From IMG/VR virus record IMGVR_UViG_2925639251_000002: a stretch of 64,000 bases of DNA; one strand, given 5' to 3'. This stretch comes from a virus. Shown here in pieces: positions 40,906-58,103 of this stretch (its first letter is position 1; the number at the start of each line of letters is the position of its first letter). The notes under the pieces are model-generated. The model worked only from the letters and a program-made list of their open reading frames with translations, did not search any database and was not told the origin of the DNA. Both the position numbers and the translations under genes were made by a program.

Positions 40906-41322
40906 ATGTTTATTATAACATATGTAACTTTATTTCTAGCAGCTTATCTAATTGCATTAAACATTAATGAGGTCAGATTGATTGTTCGAGGAGAAGGTAA
41001 TGCGTATAGAAAAGTAAAGAATGTGGTCGATAATTCATCATTAGAAAATATGAAACGAAATAAGAATTTGATTTACCTGTTTACTTTGCTCAAGGGGATA
41101 TCTTTCATTGTCCCTTTGGCTTATATCGGATTAATTATGCATGATAACATTCTAATGCTTGCTTGGACAGCAGTTTCACTTATTTATGTTGTCCTTAGTA
41201 TGTTTAAAGTTTTAGATGTATTAGAAGGTGAAAGAATCAAGCAAAACACATATTTTTACTTGTTATTTGTTTGTGGGAATTTTCTTTTTGTTGTATTTTA
41301 TTTGGCAGATATATTCGTATAA
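40906..41322 (+). CDS. Membrane protein
   Basis: Four hydrophobic segments. Confidence 0.65.
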
Positions 41323-41378
41323 AATATATAATTAATGCTTTGCTTTTTCAAATACTATTTCCAAAAGGACTGAGAATC

Positions 41379-42218
41379 GTGACTCAATTCGATAAACAAT
41401 ACAATTCAATTATAAAGGATATTATAAATAATGGAATCTCAGACGAAGAGTTTGATGTGAGAACCAAGTGGGACTCAGATGGAACACCGGCACATACTCT
41501 AAGTGTAATCAGTAAGCAAATGAGATTCGACAACTCAGAGGTTCCGATTTTAACGACAAAAAAGGTTGCCTGGAAAACAGCCATTAAAGAGTTGCTCTGG
41601 ATTTGGCAGCTGAAATCTAATGATGTTAATGATTTAAACAAGATGGGCGTACATATTTGGGATCAGTGGAAACAAGAAGACGGCACCATCGGACATGCAT
41701 ATGGATTTCAGCTGGGGAAGAAAAACAGAAGTCTAAATGGAGAAAAAGTGGATCAGGTAGACTATCTTCTTCATCAATTGAAGAACAACCCGTCTTCACG
41801 CAGACATATTACAATGCTGTGGAATCCTGATGATTTAGACGCAATGTCCTTAACGCCATGTGTATACGAAACTCAATGGTATGTGAAGCAAGGTAAGCTC
41901 CACCTCGAGGTAAGAGCACGGAGCAATGACATGGCATTGGGAAATCCATTCAATGTATTCCAGTACAATGTGTTGCAGCGCATGATTGCTCGAGTGACTG
42001 GTTATGAGCTTGGTGAATATATCTTTAACATTGGGGATTGCCATGTGTACACACGTCATATAGACAATTTGAAAATTCAAATGGAAAGAGAACAGTTTGA
42101 AGCACCTGAACTATGGATCAATCCTGCAGTGAAAGATTTTTATCATTTTACAATCGATGATTTCAAGTTAATCAACTATAAGCATGGAGACAAGCTTTCA
42201 TTTGAGGTAGCGGTTTAA
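41379..42218 (+). CDS. thyA: Thymidylate synthase (thyP3/ThyA type)
   Basis: GTG start gives 279 aa; PCV catalytic Cys, RSND, PFNVFQY, GDCHVY. Confidence 0.93.
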   Translation: MTQFDKQYNSIIKDIINNGISDEEFDVRTKWDSDGTPAHTLSVISKQMRFDNSEVPILTTKKVAWKTAIKELLWIWQLKSNDVNDLNKMGVHIWDQWKQEDGTIGHAYGFQLGKKNRSLNGEKVDQVDYLLHQLKNNPSSRRHITMLWNPDDLDAMSLTPCVYETQWYVKQGKLHLEVRARSNDMALGNPFNVFQYNVLQRMIARVTGYELGEYIFNIGDCHVYTRHIDNLKIQMEREQFEAPELWINPAVKDFYHFTIDDFKLINYKHGDKLSFEVAV

Positions 42219-42739
42219 TGCTATCTCTTATTGCTTGCTGTGATAAAACTCTGGCCATTGGACATCAAAACAAATTACTGTATCATTTGCCTGCTGACAT
42301 GAAACATTTCAAAGAAAAAACTGAGGGGAAAATATGTATTCAAGGAAGATCAACATACGAATCAATTATCGGTATGACAGGTAAGCCTCTACAGAATAGA
42401 AGGAATATTATACTTACTAGGGATCAGAACTTTAAGCCAGATTATTCATCCTTTGTGTATCATTCAATTGAGGAGGTCTTAAAGCTCATTCAAGGTCAAG
42501 TTAACACTGATGAGGAAGTGATGGTGATAGGGGGAAGTATGATTTACAAAGCATTCTTGCCCTACGCTGATAAAGTGTATTTGACAATTGTTGATTCAGA
42601 GTCAAATGAAGCAGATTCATATTTCCCAATGTTAGATGATCATTGGAAAGTGACTAATAAACAACATAATGAAGCCGATGAAAAGAACAAATACAATTAT
42701 TCCTTCCTAACTTTTGAAAATAAATATAGACAAAAATAA
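42218..42739 (+). CDS. dfrA: Dihydrofolate reductase
   Basis: AIG...LLYHLPADMKHFK, GRSTYESI, VIGGS, ADSYFP. Confidence 0.9.
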   Translation: MLSLIACCDKTLAIGHQNKLLYHLPADMKHFKEKTEGKICIQGRSTYESIIGMTGKPLQNRRNIILTRDQNFKPDYSSFVYHSIEEVLKLIQGQVNTDEEVMVIGGSMIYKAFLPYADKVYLTIVDSESNEADSYFPMLDDHWKVTNKQHNEADEKNKYNYSFLTFENKYRQK

Positions 42740-44143: not shown

Positions 44144-44306
44144 ATTAATATAAAATCTGTATTTTAAAGAGAAGGTGCTGCAGTGAAAGAGTCGTTGAAG
44201 AATGATTTTCAAGAGTTTATGAGTATTGCAAAAAGCTTTCTTGCTGTTTCTGGAGCAGTCTTTTGGTTATTGATAATTTCACTTGTTTTTGCTGGGGGCT
44301 ATTAAA

Positions 44307-44495
44307 ATGAATCAATCATATAAAGTTAGTCTAGAAAAATTACCAATTGAAAGCTTAGAGAGACTGAAAACAGACATACAAAATAGAATTAATGATGGAT
44401 TGAGTACCGATAACAATGCATACATAAAAGACCAGAGAAGAAAACTTCAAATCGTTTTAGACGAGCTGATTAGACGAAGTACATTTGTTCACTAA
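44307..44495 (+). CDS. Small phage protein (62 aa)
   Basis: ATG 44307; its stop overlaps the RBS of the following mini-ORF. Confidence 0.6.
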   Translation: MNQSYKVSLEKLPIESLERLKTDIQNRINDGLSTDNNAYIKDQRRKLQIVLDELIRRSTFVH

Positions 44496-44509
44496 AGGAG
44501 GTGAATACA

Positions 44510-44548
44510 ATGCCAGTAGTACTTTATGGATTTGGAAGAGGAGCATAA
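44510..44548 (+). CDS. 12-aa mini-ORF MPVVLYGFGRGA ending in an arbitrium-type hexapeptide, no signal peptide
   Basis: AAAGGAGGTGA RBS (44494-44504), ATG 44510, TAA 44546-44548, followed by a hairpin. Confidence 0.7.
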   Translation: MPVVLYGFGRGA

Positions 44549-44553
44549 AAAGA

Positions 44554-44571
44554 GAGGGGAACGTTCCCCTC
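44554..44571. terminator. Probable bidirectional terminator between the mini-ORF and sspC
   Basis: Perfect palindrome GAGGGGAACGTTCCCCTC; T tract on the minus strand. Confidence 0.75.
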
Positions 44572-44576
44572 ATACA

Positions 44577-44789
44577 TTAATGAAATTGGCCATTCATGCT
44601 TTGTTGAGCTAAGCGAACCAAACGTTTTGTAATTTCTCCACCTACTGAACCGTTTGCTCGGCTAGTTGTCTCAGGCCCTAAGTTCACACCGAACTCAGAA
44701 GCAATTTCATACTTCATTTGTTCAAGGGCACCAGCAGCTTGAGGCACAAGTAATTCATTGCTGTTGTTTGATCTGTTTTGTTGAGCCAT
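44577..44789 (-). CDS. sspC: Alpha/beta-type small acid-soluble spore protein (70 aa)
   Basis: LLVPQA...[11 protein letters not shown]...[16 protein letters not shown]. Confidence 0.92.
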
Positions 44790-44833
44790 ATGATCATCTC
44801 CTAAAGTTGTATGTAAACAAGCTTGTTCAATTG

Positions 44834-44862
44834 TATTGTGTGGAGATGTTTTGAAAATATAC
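44834..44862 (-). promoter_or_regulatory. sigma-G-type promoter of sspC
   Basis: Minus strand GTATA-N17-CACAATA. Confidence 0.7.
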
Positions 44863-44889
44863 ACATTAATTTGAATAGAGGTGATTTAA

Positions 44890-44913
44890 ATGACTATTGG
44901 TCGTGGAGGATGA
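44890..44913 (+). CDS. 7-aa mini-ORF MTIGRGG (arbitrium-type peptide directly after Met)
   Basis: AGAGGTGA RBS (44877-44884), 5-nt spacer, ATG ACT ATT GGT CGT GGA GGA TGA. Confidence 0.65.
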   Translation: MTIGRGG

Positions 44914-44956
44914 ATTAACACACACTTTACCATGGGTTTAGATAGGGGGATACATA

Positions 44957-48468: not shown

Positions 48469-50169
48469 TTGCTTATATTAAAGGGAGATCAAAAGCTAAG
48501 TACGGACAATATAATGCATTTGATTGGCAAAATTAATGCATTGATTTATGCCAGAGTATCAACAACAGATCAAGCTAATAAGGGTTTTTCAATTGAGTCA
48601 CAAATAGAAAGGTGTAAAGAAAGAGCAATCTCTAAATTTGGATACAAGGAAAGCGAAATAATTGCGTTAGTTGAACCGGGGGGCATGGGAGATGATCCAA
48701 ACCGGCCAGCTCTTAATCACGCATTATATTTATTAGAAAAAGGACTAGGAAAAAAATTCATTGTATTACACCCAGATCGTCTAACTAGAGATAACACCTT
48801 ACAGGGTGTGGTATCAAGAAGAATATGGGGTATGGGTGTTGATATCGAGTTTATTGAATTTGAAGTAAATCCTCATGATCCTGAATCAATGCTGATGTAC
48901 AACATTCAAGGTTCAATTGCACAGTACAATAAGGCGAAAATTCATGCTAACTCAAAGCGAGGAAGATTGGCTAAAGCAAAGAAAGGTGAATTTCCTTCAT
49001 TTAAAAGGTTGTATGGGTACAAATTTAATACAGTGACAGATCTTCCTGAGTATAACGAAGAAGAAAAAGAAATTTTGCTTGAAATGAAGGATATGCTCTT
49101 AAACAAAAAAATGTCCTCGAATGAAATTGCTAAAGAACTTTCAAGAAGGGGAGTTGCTGCTCCTAACGGAAAGACTTGGTATCAGGCAACTGTAAGTAGA
49201 ATGTTGCAGAATGAAGATTACACAGGTGATTTTTATTATGGAAAGTCAAAAGTTGTTCAAATTAACGGTAAGAAGAAACAGGTGCCGACAAACAAAGACG
49301 AATGGATATTGATAAAGATTCCTCCAATGTGGGATAAAGCTACACGAGAGCAAATCATTGAGCGATTGAAGAGCAACTTTAAGGGAAGAAGTCGAGCTAC
49401 TAAAGACTATTTGCTGAAAAACAAGGCGAAATGCGGCCGTTGTGGAGGGGCATGTGGCTCAGGAATAACTTCTAAAACTAAATCAGGCGTATATAAGTAT
49501 TATTCTTGTAGAGCAAAGACTGCAAAAGGATATCAAAATGGCAAGAAAGTTGTTTCATGTGAAGGTAAGAACTGGAGAGTCGATATCGTTGATGAAGTTT
49601 TTTGGAACTGGTTTATAAAACTCATGAAGAATCCAGAGAAATTTCTAGAATCATTTTTAGAGGAAGCGTCTGATCAAAAGAAAATCGATGAACTCAAAGC
49701 AAAAGCAAATCGACTAGAAAAACAACTCGGTGAGATAGATGAAGAAATTGCAAATTATGTAATTCTTTTCGGGAAAGGGAAAATTAAAGAAAGTATGTTC
49801 GACCAACTGTCTCAGCCATTGGAACAGAACAAAGAGCATATTGAGAATGAGATTAAAATAATTAATTCACAATTGGCTGCAAATAAACAAACTGAAGACA
49901 AAAAACAAAAAATGATCGAGTATATTGGCTCGTTCTCTAAAATGATTAAAAATGAAATTACAATAGAAGAAAAACGGCAATTCCTTGATTTCTTCATTGA
50001 AAAAGTAACTCTGTTTGATGATGATCACATGGAAGTTGTATGGAAAAGTTCTTCACTTAATAATGAAAACAGCCATGTGGATTTTCTTAACGGCGAGCAG
50101 GGAGGGGAGTTTATAAACTCGCATAAAAGACTAAACCATATTCAAGCATATGGAAGACAAACAGCATGA
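48469..50169 (+). CDS. Large serine recombinase (SprA-like integrase)
   Basis: YARVST catalytic Ser, DRLTR, Zn-ribbon CGRCG...YYSC...C, coiled coil. Confidence 0.93.
   Translation: MLILKGDQKLSTDNIMHLIGKINALIYARVSTTDQANKGFSIESQIERCKERAISKFGYKESEIIALVEPGGMGDDPNRPALNHALYLLEKGLGKKFIVLHPDRLTRDNTLQGVVSRRIWGMGVDIEFIEFEVNPHDPESMLMYNIQGSIAQYNKAKIHANSKRGRLAKAKKGEFPSFKRLYGYKFNTVTDLPEYNEEEKEILLEMKDMLLNKKMSSNEIAKELSRRGVAAPNGKTWYQATVSRMLQNEDYTGDFYYGKSKVVQINGKKKQVPTNKDEWILIKIPPMWDKATREQIIERLKSNFKGRSRATKDYLLKNKAKCGRCGGACGSGITSKTKSGVYKYYSCRAKTAKGYQNGKKVVSCEGKNWRVDIVDEVFWNWFIKLMKNPEKFLESFLEEASDQKKIDELKAKANRLEKQLGEIDEEIANYVILFGKGKIKESMFDQLSQPLEQNKEHIENEIKIINSQLAANKQTEDKKQKMIEYIGSFSKMIKNEITIEEKRQFLDFFIEKVTLFDDDHMEVVWKSSSLNNENSHVDFLNGEQGGEFINSHKRLNHIQAYGRQTA
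50136..50153. other. Prophage-host att junction within spoVK
   Basis: CCATAT-TCAAGC-ATATGG inverted repeat centred on AA (50144-50145); host spoVK sequence (K-H-M-E-D-K) resumes here. Confidence 0.75.
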
Positions 50170-50560
50170 GTTTATTTTGATACTCGCCGGATATTCACGG
50201 GAAATGGATCATTTTCTCTCGTTAAATCCCGGACTCCAATCAAGATTTCCCATCTCCATTGATTTTCCGGATTACTCTGTGACCCAGCTCATGGAGATTG
50301 CGAAACGAATGATCGATGAAAGGGAATACCAGCTCAGTCAAGAAGCGGAATGGAAATTGAAAGATTACTTAATGACAGTGAAAAGCACGACAAGTCCCAT
50401 TAAATTCAGCAATGGACGTTTTGTCAGAAATGTGATCGAAAAATCGATCAGAGCACAAGCCATGAGGCTTTTAATGGGAGACCAATACTTAAAAAGCGAC
50501 TTGATGACCATCAAAAGCCAAGATCTTTCCATTAAAGAAGAAGCATCTGGATCTGCATAG
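50144..50560 (+). pseudogene. spoVK: 3' part of spoVK (AAA ATPase for spore maturation), interrupted by the prophage
   Basis: KHMEDKQHEFILILAGY...NPGLQSRFP...SNGRFVRN...EEASGSA matches the SpoVK C-terminus. Confidence 0.92.
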
Positions 50561-55260: not shown

Positions 55261-56415
55261 TTAGAAATCTAACTCTACGATTGACGAGACGTAATTTTCG
55301 TAATTCTTTATTCGGCTTTGGTCAAGTTTTTTACTTACATGGGAATAAACATCGGCGGTTACCATCATACTTTTATGACCTAAGCGCTCTTGAATATATT
55401 TCATGTCTGCACCTGATTCTAAAAGTAATACAGCATGCGTGTGCCGCAATGCATGGATTGGCATTTTATCAATGTTTGCTCGTTTTAAAATGCGATTAAA
55501 TGCATTGAAGAGGGTAGACTTCGGTAAGATATTCCCGTCAACGCGACTAAAAACTAAGTTAAGATCATGCCTATAATCATCTTGCAACATTTGTTTGTTC
55601 TCAAATTGCCACTTCTTATGTTTTTGTAAAGCCGCAGAAAGTGAGGCGCCGATTGATATTCTTCTTTTGGATTCATACGTTTTAGTTTCGCCGAAGAGTT
55701 CATCGGTGGTTTTTGCAGTGAAATCTAATGTTTTCTTAATGTCTATGTAATTCTCTCTCAGGTTGATGTCTGTCCATTGCAGTGCGGCGGCTTCCCCTTT
55801 TCGCATCCCGGTTTCCAAGAGAGCTCTGAAGAAGATGTAATAAATATAGTTATACTTATAGGCTTTCTGAAGAAATTTTGGAATATCGTCAGAAAGCATG
55901 TATTGAAGAGTGTCTTTTTTCTTTTCGTTCTTATTCGAAACTGTAGCTCCGAAACAAGGGTTTTTTGTTAATTTCCCAATGATTACAGCTTTACTAAATG
56001 CATTAAACATTGTACCGTGTATAATTTCAACAGTACGCTTACTATATCCCTTATCGGTTAATGAATTAAGGAATTTTTGATACATAATAGGTTTTACATC
56101 GGTAACCTTTATGTTTTTAAAGTAAGGTAGAATATGATTTTTGATGTTTCGTTCATGAAGCTCGTAAGTATTTTTTCTTACAGTATCTTTTTTATACTCG
56201 TTTAGCCAGCTTAATAAAAATTGTTTAAGAGAAATAGTAACCGTGTCGTATTCGAAATCCGTTGCTAGTAATGTTTCCTGCTCAGCTGCTGCCAGCTGTG
56301 CTTCTTTTTTTGTTTTAAAACCACTTTTTGATTTAACTTTATTTTTGAGCGTAAAGGGATCCTGATAGGAGATTCGGTATTCCCATGTATGGCCACGCTT
56401 TCTATAACTCGCCAC
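55261..56415 (-). CDS. Tyrosine integrase
   Basis: ETGMRKGE, IHALRHTHA, RLGH...VYSH; AP2-like arm-binding N-terminus. Confidence 0.95.
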   Translation of the reverse strand: MASYRKRGHTWEYRISYQDPFTLKNKVKSKSGFKTKKEAQLAAAEQETLLATDFEYDTVTISLKQFLLSWLNEYKKDTVRKNTYELHERNIKNHILPYFKNIKVTDVKPIMYQKFLNSLTDKGYSKRTVEIIHGTMFNAFSKAVIIGKLTKNPCFGATVSNKNEKKKDTLQYMLSDDIPKFLQKAYKYNYIYYIFFRALLETGMRKGEAAALQWTDINLRENYIDIKKTLDFTAKTTDELFGETKTYESKRRISIGASLSAALQKHKKWQFENKQMLQDDYRHDLNLVFSRVDGNILPKSTLFNAFNRILKRANIDKMPIHALRHTHAVLLLESGADMKYIQERLGHKSMMVTADVYSHVSKKLDQSRIKNYENYVSSIVELDF

Positions 56416-56710
56416 GACTATTCCCTCCAGATTTATTTTTAAATATAAACTTTGATACTATTATGTAATGTAACATAATGTTTTTGTAGGAAAAAATCAA
56501 CAAAGTATCATGCGAAGGCAATAAATAAAACACTTATGAATCCCCATGGTTAGAACCAAATCCATACAAAATATATCTATTTAGTAAGAATTATGATACA
56601 ATAAATAAGATTGGAAAAATTATATTTATTTGGATTTTTTGTTCTTTCTTTGATCCTTTCGTCATTAATCGACAATCTTTTTTTGTTCAGTATGTTAAAT
56701 TAATTTTGAA

Positions 56711-57904
56711 ATGGTGATTATGATGAGTGAAAGTATAGTAGATGTTAGAAATCATTTAAAGCGCATAATAGAGTCTTCAGATGAAAAACAGAAAGAGATT
56801 GCCGATAAAATTGGAATTAGTGCTGCCCACTTAAGTAAGTTTTTGAATGGGCAAGAAATTTCACTTTGGATGGTATTGGAGATAATACGTTACCTCGATA
56901 AGGATAACGAGGTCGAAATCATGCGGCAATGCTGCCTTGAGGCGACAAAGAAAAATATAAAAACTGCTTTTGAATATGCTCATTCTAAAAGTTTGGACTC
57001 AGTCACTTGTATATTGCTCAATAAAACCTTGGACGGAAATAACAGAGAGTTAAAGGAATGGGCAATCGTCTATCAATGGCAACTATGGTCAAAATACAAT
57101 CGTGTTTATAGCGAGGTTGATTACCTCGAAATGTTGAAAAAGCTGCAACCCAATTCTCATGACTTAAAAACACTTTTGCAAATTCTAGAGATGCTTTGCT
57201 TTTATTACAGTGAGAAGTATGATTTATCTCTACACTACATAAAAAAAATTCACAACATGCTTCCTGAAATTAAGGATCCATTTATTAAAAAAGCATTTTT
57301 AAGCCGTACAGACGAAGCTCTAGCAAATATGTATCTGAAGTTTGAAAACAATATAGATAAATCCAGAGGATCTGCTGAAAAGCTCATCGAAAGAAATTTT
57401 AGCGTGAATTCGGTGACGAATGGCTATTTTATATTGGGATTATCATATTTGTTTGAATCATACGAGAAAACATCAAGCTTTTTTAAAAAAGGGATTCAAT
57501 TAAACAACACGAAAGAAAGATATTTTGTAGCTAATGACTTAAGAGAACAGTTAGCAATTACTAACCTTTTTTGGAACAAACCAGTACCAAAAGAATATAT
57601 AGTGACTGACTTTATTAAAGCAGTTGTCAATAAAGCTAATCTGAAATATTTTTATGATGACAAATACTACTCAGCTTTAGCTTTTTATTTTGACGGAAGA
57701 AGGGAAGGGAGTCAGGAAAAGCTGCTGTTATCGTTACATGTTTTTTGTGAAAAGAAGGATTACTTTAGAGCAAACCTACCAAAAATGGAGTTGCTAAAAC
57801 TAGGAGTTGATTATAATATATTAAAAAGGGAGGTGAAAATTGGTGAAAAAGACAATTATAGGAGTTTTGATTACTTTAGCAATAGCTCTAGCATTTGTTT
57901 TTAG
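56711..57904 (+). CDS. aimR: AimR-like arbitrium receptor (HTH + TPR)
   Basis: N-terminal XRE HTH; LKEWAIVY and TPR-like helices; followed by a pro-peptide gene. Confidence 0.85.
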   Translation: MVIMMSESIVDVRNHLKRIIESSDEKQKEIADKIGISAAHLSKFLNGQEISLWMVLEIIRYLDKDNEVEIMRQCCLEATKKNIKTAFEYAHSKSLDSVTCILLNKTLDGNNRELKEWAIVYQWQLWSKYNRVYSEVDYLEMLKKLQPNSHDLKTLLQILEMLCFYYSEKYDLSLHYIKKIHNMLPEIKDPFIKKAFLSRTDEALANMYLKFENNIDKSRGSAEKLIERNFSVNSVTNGYFILGLSYLFESYEKTSSFFKKGIQLNNTKERYFVANDLREQLAITNLFWNKPVPKEYIVTDFIKAVVNKANLKYFYDDKYYSALAFYFDGRREGSQEKLLLSLHVFCEKKDYFRANLPKMELLKLGVDYNILKREVKIGEKDNYRSFDYFSNSSSICF

Positions 57905-58055
57905 TGCAAATAGTGCGGATGCTCCTGATTCAAAAAGCAATACAGTAATTCCATCAACAGGAACTAAACAACTGGCTGATCCTCCAGTTGGCATGAGCTT
58001 TAAATTAACGAAAGAAACACCAAAACCTAGAACAGAAAAAGCTATATTTTATTAA
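57843..58055 (+). CDS. aimP: AimP-like arbitrium pro-peptide; candidate mature peptide DPPVGM (57978-57995)
   Basis: GTG after GGGAGGTGA; MKK + hydrophobic signal peptide; QLADPPVGM. Confidence 0.8.
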   Translation: MKKTIIGVLITLAIALAFVFSANSADAPDSKSNTVIPSTGTKQLADPPVGMSFKLTKETPKPRTEKAIFY

Positions 58056-58096
58056 AAAGACGCTGCCAATTACATAGGCAACGTCTTTCGTGTTTT
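58056..58096 (+). terminator. Terminator after aimP
   Basis: AAAGACG.TGCC...GGCA.CGTCTTT stem followed by a T-rich tract. Confidence 0.75.
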
Positions 58097-58103
58097 TAAA
58101 GAG

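Follow-up and report, generated by a model that had tools for sequence, protein, structure and literature searches.

A leaderless twelve-codon open reading frame ending in the arbitrium hexapeptide GFGRGA, a candidate gene for a rival phage's signal in SPbeta-like prophages

We analyzed a 64,000-nucleotide (nt) stretch of viral DNA, IMG/VR record IMGVR_UViG_2925639251_000002 (the window), in which a 12-codon open reading frame (ORF) without a signal peptide, here called the mini-ORF, ends in GFGRGA, a hexapeptide that other phages use as their arbitrium signal. The mini-ORF lies in an SPbeta-like prophage and has sister ORFs in related phages, and we consider it probable, at roughly 0.6, that this family consists of leaderless genes for the signals of rivals, which would push rival phages into dormancy. 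Sequence and comparison provide the ORF with its Shine-Dalgarno (SD) sequence, the identity of its C-terminal payload, the architecture of the family, the mismatch between the payload and the carrier's own signal, the sharing of hosts, and synonymous-biased variation. A broader form of this idea, to which we give about even odds, is that SPbeta-like phages keep a fast-turning-over arsenal of forged-signal genes, the products of which would be cytoplasmic, would be cut to the hexapeptide, and would silence the AimR-AimX system of rivals so that a small, fast phage does not get ahead of a big, slow one.

The mini-ORF and the phages that use its hexapeptide

The mini-ORF spans 39 nt including its stop codon, reads ATG CCA GTA GTA CTT TAT GGA TTT GGA AGA GGA GCA TAA, and encodes MPVVLYGFGRGA. 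The 11-nt SD sequence that precedes it is present in 2 copies in the window, compared with 0.07 expected from shuffled sequences, and the mini-ORF is the sole frame in the window with an [RK]-G-A-stop end. An earlier note on this DNA, made from the sequence alone, had described a ribosome-binding site, an ATG, a mini-gene, a stop codon, and a hairpin within 44494-44571, and we find the sequence to be as claimed, with this range extending from the SD sequence to the hairpin. The same note had pointed to the lack of a signal peptide and of an adjacent receptor. Likewise, this holds: the 12-residue product has neither a hydrophobic h-region nor a KK n-region, and no SPbeta-type aimR was found within the window. 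Canonical AimPs (from 14 phages and 48 IMG/VR loci) all start with M/L-KK, and a hydrophobic stretch comes next. Synteny with phi3T and Goe14 places the aimR-aimP pair of this prophage approximately 51-54 kb upstream of the mini-ORF, outside the window, in agreement with the earlier estimate of more than 44 kb. Lacking a signal peptide and a neighbouring receptor gene, the mini-ORF is not a strict member of the AimP family. GFGRGA stands at its extreme C-terminus, as in the clade-2 xxxRGA pattern of mature AimP, and the mini-ORF most likely works through receptor chemistry of the AimP type.

GFGRGA counts among the six major arbitrium peptide families (PMC6458997) and has served as a representative clade-2 peptide (PMC13220667). 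These reports, together with canonical AimR-AimP pairs that we found, bear out the earlier description of GFGRGA as a natural variant. In the canonical pair, AimR is followed by MKKVFIGLTIVASLAVGFVAGQQTTIHSASGEETFHVA|GFGRGA, a 44-residue precursor of the form MKKVFIGL...ETFHVA|GFGRGA. Such pairs are present in the genomes of two Bacillus species (G004 and G013) and, within IMG/VR, in a dozen prophage contigs that are 28-95 kb long (L225-L243). One canonical GFGRGA element encodes an integrase, a repressor, a ParB-like protein, and a virion structural protein, indicating that the carrier of this signal is a small temperate phage-like element. No cultured phage record with a canonical GFGRGA system was found, and no reciprocal mimics, that is, SPbeta-type signals, were found in the parts of small GFGRGA prophages that were examined.

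Carriers of the mini-ORF share hosts with these small elements. Host genomes 2513237190 and 2799112227 each contain an SPbeta-like prophage with the GFGRGA mini-ORF as well as a small canonical GFGRGA prophage, and host genome 2912874417 contains a GFGRGA mini-ORF carrier together with an NPGRGA prophage. Furthermore, among relatives with a readable AimP (the aimP of the prophage studied here lies outside the window), no carrier has a payload identical to its own signal. Carriers of an intact GFGRGA mini-ORF have GIVRGA (Goe14), GVVRGA (SPbetaL1), SASRGA (five carriers), SPSRGA (three), SIIRGA (two), or SAIRGA or GMPRGA as the product of their own aimP, and carriers of the SASRGA mini-ORF described below have GMPRGA, GIVRGA, or GVVRGA. 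The sharing of hosts is more telling than the mismatch between payload and own signal.

Sister ORFs, relatives, and sequence variation

A second 12-codon ORF with an SD sequence and an ATG, MVQTLHSASRGA (MVQTLH-SASRGA), is intact and unannotated in SPbeta/SPBc2 (AF020713.1 129848-129886; positions 1442-1480 of our stretch L003), a phage whose own signal is GMPRGA. Its SD sequence is AAAGGAGG, and it lies between yosZ and sspC, approximately 70 nt upstream of a decayed GFGRGA stretch. MVQTLHSASRGA is also intact in Goe11, in prophages L092 and L099, and in SPbetaL1, where it stands in tandem with the GFGRGA ORF. In prophage L094, this sister ORF reads MVQTLYSASRGA, and in prophage L143 the sister slot holds MGQVLHNPGRGA (MGQVLH-NPGRGA), followed by MPVVLYGFGRGA. 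The leader halves found in the family are MPVVLY (in the window), MPLVLY, MPEVLY, MPVVFY, MVQTLH, MVQTLY, and MGQVLH. BUCT082 and many SPbeta-like prophages use SASRGA as their canonical signal, and a 43-kb prophage (L216) uses NPGRGA in this way, encoding ...GDIQMA|NPGRGA beside an AimR. Thus, the GFGRGA, SASRGA, and NPGRGA payloads each exactly equal the mature signal of another phage.

This layout is found at one locus. In five complete phage genomes (125-134 kb), Arg-Gly-Ala-stop is confined to aimP and the mini-ORF locus, and the copy at the phi3T locus is frameshifted with respect to its ATG. The earlier note had proposed a pattern search for an SD sequence, an ATG, and xxxRGA-stop. When 2.9 million IMG/VR contigs were scanned with the payload left open (AGGAGG, 6-9 nt, ATG, 8 free codons, RGA, TAA), the pattern recurred in 15 stretches, all of them at the mini-ORF locus of SPbeta-like prophages. 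Relaxing the scan from RGA to xGA yielded just 7 more matches, which are unrelated singletons with random payloads, implying approximately one chance RGA match. A metagenome scan in which the interior of the ORF was free returned one match, which is unrelated (MPYPEERKNRVC). An inspection of the DNA upstream of aimR in 13 SPbeta-like phages revealed no mini-ORFs there.

The region around the mini-ORF is approximately 97% identical to the SPbeta-like phages phi3T, Goe12, Goe13, Goe14, and BUCT083. A first IMG/VR search pattern demanded YGFGRGA-stop and was hence biased; it was excluded from the selection test and replaced by a sample anchored on sspC, in which the homologous stretch was collected independently of ORF content. 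In this sample, the mini-ORF is intact and identical in Goe14 and in many IMG/VR prophages. The SPbetaL1 allele, MPLVLYGFGRGA, is likewise intact, with 4 nt differences of which 3 are synonymous, and other intact variants are seen in L079 (4 synonymous changes), L143 (3 synonymous changes), L076 (L5F), and L089 (V3E). Across the intact alleles of the sspC-anchored sample, the distinct changes number 7 synonymous and 2 non-synonymous, for 9.3 and 23.7 sites, respectively (p ~0.003), or 7 and 3 when L089, which the regular expression had missed, is added (p ~0.01, an estimate); the counts are small and the alleles phylogenetically related, which weakens the test as support for a functional gene. 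No non-synonymous change falls in the payload. The earlier note had taken synonymous-biased variation and conservation as the marks of a real gene. The bias is seen, with 7 synonymous against 2-3 non-synonymous changes, and conservation is partial: the ORF is intact in Goe14, SPbetaL1, and many prophages and broken or absent in many lineages.

The payload DNA of the mini-ORF differs from that of canonical aimP at 5 of 18 positions, all synonymous, and the Arg codon is AGA, CGA, or CGG in mini-ORFs versus CGT in canonical aimP. We detected no DNA homology of the mini-ORF to the aimP pro-region and no trace of an aimR nearby, and the module formed by the SD sequence and the ORF is 85-90% identical across contexts in which the 60 nt upstream are unrelated. 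These observations argue against a recent aimP fragment.

Two further states of this stretch were observed among the relatives. In L101 (IMG/VR 2872477547_000003), it is an 8-codon ORF with an SD sequence and an ATG, encoding MTGFRRGA. In prophages L080-L086, a longer ORF includes the homologous DNA as its tail and ends in ...WVFGFGKGV or ...WVFGLGKGV.

Proposed action and competing explanations

We propose that the mini-ORF would be expressed as the last cistron of an operon on the thyA/dfrA/yosX side and translated from its perfect SD sequence, possibly in a manner coupled to the upstream gene. The 12-mer would then be cleaved on the C-terminal side of Tyr6 (or of His6 for the sister genes), freeing the N-terminus of the hexapeptide, and the freed hexapeptide would bind the AimR of a rival and shut off the rival's aimX. 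The rival phage would be driven into lysogeny or kept there. The favoured site of action is the producing cell, in which an SPbeta-like phage would keep a co-resident or co-infecting GFGRGA prophage from being the first to induce and lyse the cell. Another possibility is that the peptide is released at lysis and taken up by neighbouring cells through Opp. We know of no exporter for the mini-ORF peptide. As for published arbitrium behaviour, a cognate peptide blocks mitomycin-C induction of resident prophages (PMC13220667), and non-cognate signals raise both the lysogeny of the receiver and the fitness of the emitter (Manley et al., bioRxiv 10.1101/2025.10.13.681967; Cell 2026, PMC13220667).

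A number of points weigh against this proposal. In the structure of SPbeta AimR with GMPRGA, Q299, the highly conserved E300, and M296 grip the free N-terminal amine of the peptide (PMC6458997). Since AimR anchors this amine, poor binding is expected of the 12-mer or, once Met has been removed, of the 11-mer, and cleavage at Tyr6|Gly7 would almost certainly be needed before AimR binding. This need qualifies the earlier note's idea of a cytoplasmic peptide that would bypass export and import. Canonical AimPs have an Ala|Gly/Ser junction where the mini-ORF has Tyr|Gly, and to our knowledge no protease for a Tyr|Gly junction has been described. Wild-type phi3T responds to synthetic SASRGA and not to Goe11-conditioned medium or a Goe11 lysogen. 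Goe11 has an intact SASRGA mini-ORF, and this silence weakly disfavours abundant release, in experiments with phi3T and Goe11 that paired no cognate SASRGA or GFGRGA receiver with these emitters.

The condition of the ORF in relatives also counts against it. In phi3T, Goe12, Goe13, and BUCT083, the GFGRGA mini-ORF is frameshifted by the loss of one T: in phi3T (L001 2862-2915), and likewise in the other three, a 1-nt deletion turns CTTTATGG into CTTATGG, giving the product MPVVLMDLEEEHKKRGE. With the phi3T mini-ORF frameshifted, experiments with phi3T would miss any effect of the mini-ORF. The GFGRGA slot of SPbeta and Goe11 has ATA as its start codon and shows further decay, that of L092 has ATC, the mini-ORF is decayed in SPbetaL8 and SPbetaL4, and it is absent from SPR, SPbetaL5, and BUCT082. 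By a rough tally of 55 elements, 20 have one or more intact mini-ORFs, and remnants are all that is left in at least 7. Breakage or absence in so many relatives indicates that selection on the ORF is weak or episodic. In addition, the last codons of the mini-ORF overlap the T-tract of the sspC terminator, a constraint on the DNA that is independent of coding, and because homology to relatives is unbroken from the SD sequence through the terminator into sspC, the ORF may be hitch-hiking with the sspC cassette. The mismatch between payload and own signal was considered as statistical support and dropped, given that it is trivially true for GFGRGA, which no sampled SPbeta-like phage uses as its own signal, and non-significant for SASRGA, where the comparison involves small numbers of related phages. 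On the supporting side, RNA libraries from four independent studies yielded contigs that span 44153-44921 with the intact allele and no difference inside the ORF; these contigs carry no strand or level and may reflect DNA carry-over. More generally, translation, cleavage, AimR binding, the route, and the fitness effect of the mini-ORF are steps that we infer from its sequence.

The main rival explanation, which we regard as unlikely, is that the mini-ORF is a decaying relic, that is, old coding debris, such as an aimP tail picked up by the phage or the end of a longer gene, that rides with the sspC-terminator cassette. Such an origin would be consistent with the frameshifts, start loss, deletions, or full absence seen in many lineages, with the longer ORF ending in ...WVFGFGKGV, or the YGFGRGV without a start, found in some prophages, and with homology that runs unbroken to sspC while the 3' end of the ORF overlaps the T-tract. 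However, debris would not be expected to yield three payloads that each exactly match a different canonical signal, nor a 12-codon length, a strong SD sequence, and a leader pattern that are constant in two tandem slots and accompanied by synonymous-biased variation. The lack of homology to the aimP pro-region or of a nearby aimR, and an Arg codon other than the canonical CGT, speak against a captured aimP tail, and the restriction of the layout to the mini-ORF locus among 2.9 million viral contigs speaks against debris in general. It is very improbable that the ORF arose by pure chance. YGFGRGA-stop does arise randomly in unrelated phage contigs among the 2.9 million scanned, but these matches lack the SD-ATG 12-codon layout, all 15 matches to which are at the mini-ORF locus; moreover, three different exact signals occur at that locus, and the perfect 11-nt SD sequence is expected 0.07 times per window.

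The earlier note had offered two options for the peptide, namely feedback on the phage's own AimR and mimicry directed at competing phages. Under the former, the peptide would be a self-directed timer, cross-reacting in the cytoplasm with the phage's own AimR to give a push toward lysogeny that is independent of export. The phage does have an AimR, and arbitrium receptors are subject to crosstalk among RGA peptides. Yet the GFGRGA payload coexists with seven different own signals, synthetic GFGRGA failed to reduce the induction of SPbeta, phi3T, and Goe11 (PMC13220667), and GFGRGA is not among the peptides to which phi3T AimR responds. These results make self-feedback improbable. Mimicry of a rival fits the comparative evidence, in that own AimPs differ from the payload, GFGRGA systems are present in host-sharing small prophages, and sister ORFs carry two rival signals. 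We are similarly doubtful, and strongly so, that the mini-ORF is a translated micro-ORF with a role outside arbitrium, for example one in which ribosomes modulate read-through at the sspC terminator or antisense read-through, or one with another peptide target. As such a role might suggest, 5 nt separate its stop codon from the hairpin, the minus-strand T-tract runs into that codon, and a second tiny ORF, MTIGRGG, lies on the other side of sspC. A role of this kind leaves the exact arbitrium payloads in three paralogues unexplained, and the SASRGA/NPGRGA slot has the same architecture even though it lies approximately 70 nt from the terminator.

Genomic surroundings, significance, and known systems

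Table 1. Coordinates of the mini-ORF, its parts, and surrounding features in the window
Feature	Position	Strand	Remarks
Tandem thymidylate synthase and dihydrofolate reductase genes	41271-42739		Immediately upstream of the operon ending in the mini-ORF
62-codon gene, phi3T_186 homologue	44307-44495	+	Upstream of the mini-ORF and co-directional; its TAA (44493-44495) overlaps the start of the mini-ORF SD sequence
SD sequence AAAGGAGGTGA	44494-44504	+	Perfect 11-nt complement of the 16S rRNA 3' end; 5-nt spacer to ATG
Mini-ORF	44510-44548	+	12 codons and stop
Leader half MPVVLY	44510-44527	+	Family consensus M-x-x-[V/T]-[L/F]-[Y/H]
Payload GFGRGA and TAA stop	44528-44548	+	Same as the mature signal of canonical AimP(GFGRGA)
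GC-rich hairpin GAGGGGA-ACGT-TCCCCTC	44554-44571	-	sspC intrinsic terminator; minus-strand T-tract overlaps the mini-ORF stop codon
sspC, phage-borne alpha/beta-type small acid-soluble spore protein	44577-44789	-	Convergent with the mini-ORF
7-codon ORF MTIGRGG	44890-44913	+	Own SD sequence AGAGGTGA; divergent from the sspC promoter region
Serine recombinase gene	48469-50169		Abuts the apparent 3' part of spoVK (region 48469-50560)
Second mobile element	55261-58100		Just past glnA
Tyrosine integrase gene	55261-56415	-	In the second mobile element
397-residue HTH-TPR protein gene	56711-57904		22-23% identical to AimRs
71-residue ORF with signal peptide	57840-58055		Overlaps the HTH-TPR gene

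The mini-ORF is the final plus-strand cistron before the terminator of the convergent sspC, and it has the same position in relatives. The hairpin that the earlier note placed after the mini-gene is present, but it is first of all the terminator of sspC, since the intrinsic-terminator score falls on the minus strand, where the T-run lies. It may also end plus-strand transcription and would then be bidirectional at most. The SPBc2 annotation has a stem_loop at the homologous place. On the plus strand, the interval from 42.3 to 44.5 kb contains no terminator-like sites, so that the mini-ORF is plausibly the last cistron of a run that starts after thyA/dfrA. The early promoter previously placed at 42727 does not stand out, as it is a 9/12 match to the consensus, and a scan found 13 such sites versus 12.6 in shuffled sequence. 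A local hairpin (-9.5 kcal/mol, z -1.9), in which the last codons of the upstream 62-codon gene pair with the AUG of the mini-ORF, is weakly suggestive of translational coupling. No receptor gene was found inside the operon (42.7-44.6 kb), and the adjacent Rgg/ComR receptor that marks SHP/XIP-type systems is therefore lacking.

On the far side of sspC, the MTIGRGG ORF consists of Met plus a hexapeptide, such that Met removal alone would yield a 6-mer, and its relatives read MTIGRG or MSIGHGA at the equivalent place. No canonical arbitrium system with payloads of this type was found. A loose pattern for such payloads, I-G-[RH..]-G-[AG], was tried and rejected; it gave approximately as many matches as the controls, and the recurrent IGHGA string was out of frame in a flagellar switch gene.

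The right end of the prophage lies at approximately 50.15 kb, at the junction of the serine recombinase gene with what appears to be spoVK, the integration site reported for Goe14. Beyond spoVK are hflX, glnR, and glnA, named from reading their translations. In the second mobile element, the HTH-TPR protein, encoded approximately 12 kb from the mini-ORF, is the only AimR-like ORF in the window; the 71-residue ORF that overlaps its gene encodes a peptide other than GFGRGA, and repressor-like HTH genes follow. From its sequence, this element looks like the carrier of an RRNPP/arbitrium-like receptor-peptide pair of another clade. In a relative of the prophage, SPbetaL5 (L022/L026, OQ921345.1 ~90437-91515), the match of aimR to phi3T AimR is split into two pieces, the first of which contains two TAA stops, and aimP (SAIRGA) is intact; the AimR receptor thus appears to be disrupted in this isolate.

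Arbitrium has long been seen as private to each phage, and the ability of non-cognate secreted AimPs to manipulate other phages was shown by two groups in 2025-26. If dedicated genes for rivals' signals exist that need neither receptor nor export, accidental crosstalk would become evolved deception, and the mini-ORF would be without precedent as a gene dedicated to forging signals between phages. The resulting arms race would be a concrete selective force and part of the explanation for the diversification of arbitrium signals, and 12-codon genes of this kind would form a new class overlooked by annotation pipelines. Full-text literature searches found the crosstalk papers and nothing on signal genes that are leaderless or orphan, on sspC or yosZ, or on the 12-mer sequences; likewise, NPGRGA, SIGHGA, and TIGRGG were not found as signals in the literature. 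Standard material is available in the form of SPbeta/168 with MVQTLHSASRGA, Goe14 and SPbetaL1 with the GFGRGA ORF, a Phi3T.SASRGA receiver, and AimR-PaimX reporters.

With canonical AimP (SPbeta yopL, GMPRGA; phi3T_90, SAIRGA), the mini-ORF shares a signal formed by the last six residues, the RGA end, and the phage genus. Canonical AimPs differ in having 41-44 residues and a Sec signal peptide, in being encoded directly downstream of aimR, and in being cut after Ala, whereas the mini-ORF has 12 residues and no signal peptide, lies approximately 50 kb from aimR, and has a Tyr|Gly junction and a payload that is not the carrier's signal. The AimR-AimP(GFGRGA) systems of small prophages have the identical hexapeptide, occur in the same host genus, and share one host genome with the mini-ORF in at least two cases; unlike the mini-ORF, they include a receptor, make a 44-residue secreted precursor, use CGT for Arg, and have no detectable DNA homology to it. 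In reported arbitrium crosstalk (Manley et al., bioRxiv 10.1101/2025.10.13.681967; Cell 2026, PMC13220667), the peptide of one phage pushes another to lysogeny or blocks its induction, to the benefit of the emitter, as proposed here. In those reports, the manipulator is the emitter's own secreted AimP, which acts through receptor promiscuity, whereas the mini-ORF is a separate leaderless gene with the exact signal of a rival.

Beyond arbitrium, the inhibitors of enterococcal pheromone plasmids (iCF10/PrgQ and iAD1) are likewise short peptides of a mobile element that compete at an RRNPP-type receptor and govern a lifestyle switch. They differ in that they antagonise the element's own receptor against the host pheromone and are made as secreted precursors of 22-23 residues. 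The streptococcal SHP and ComS/XIP systems resemble the mini-ORF in having very short ORFs without a classical Sec signal and an active pheromone at the C-terminus, and they differ from it in that their genes lie beside the cognate Rgg/ComR receptor and their products are exported by PptAB.

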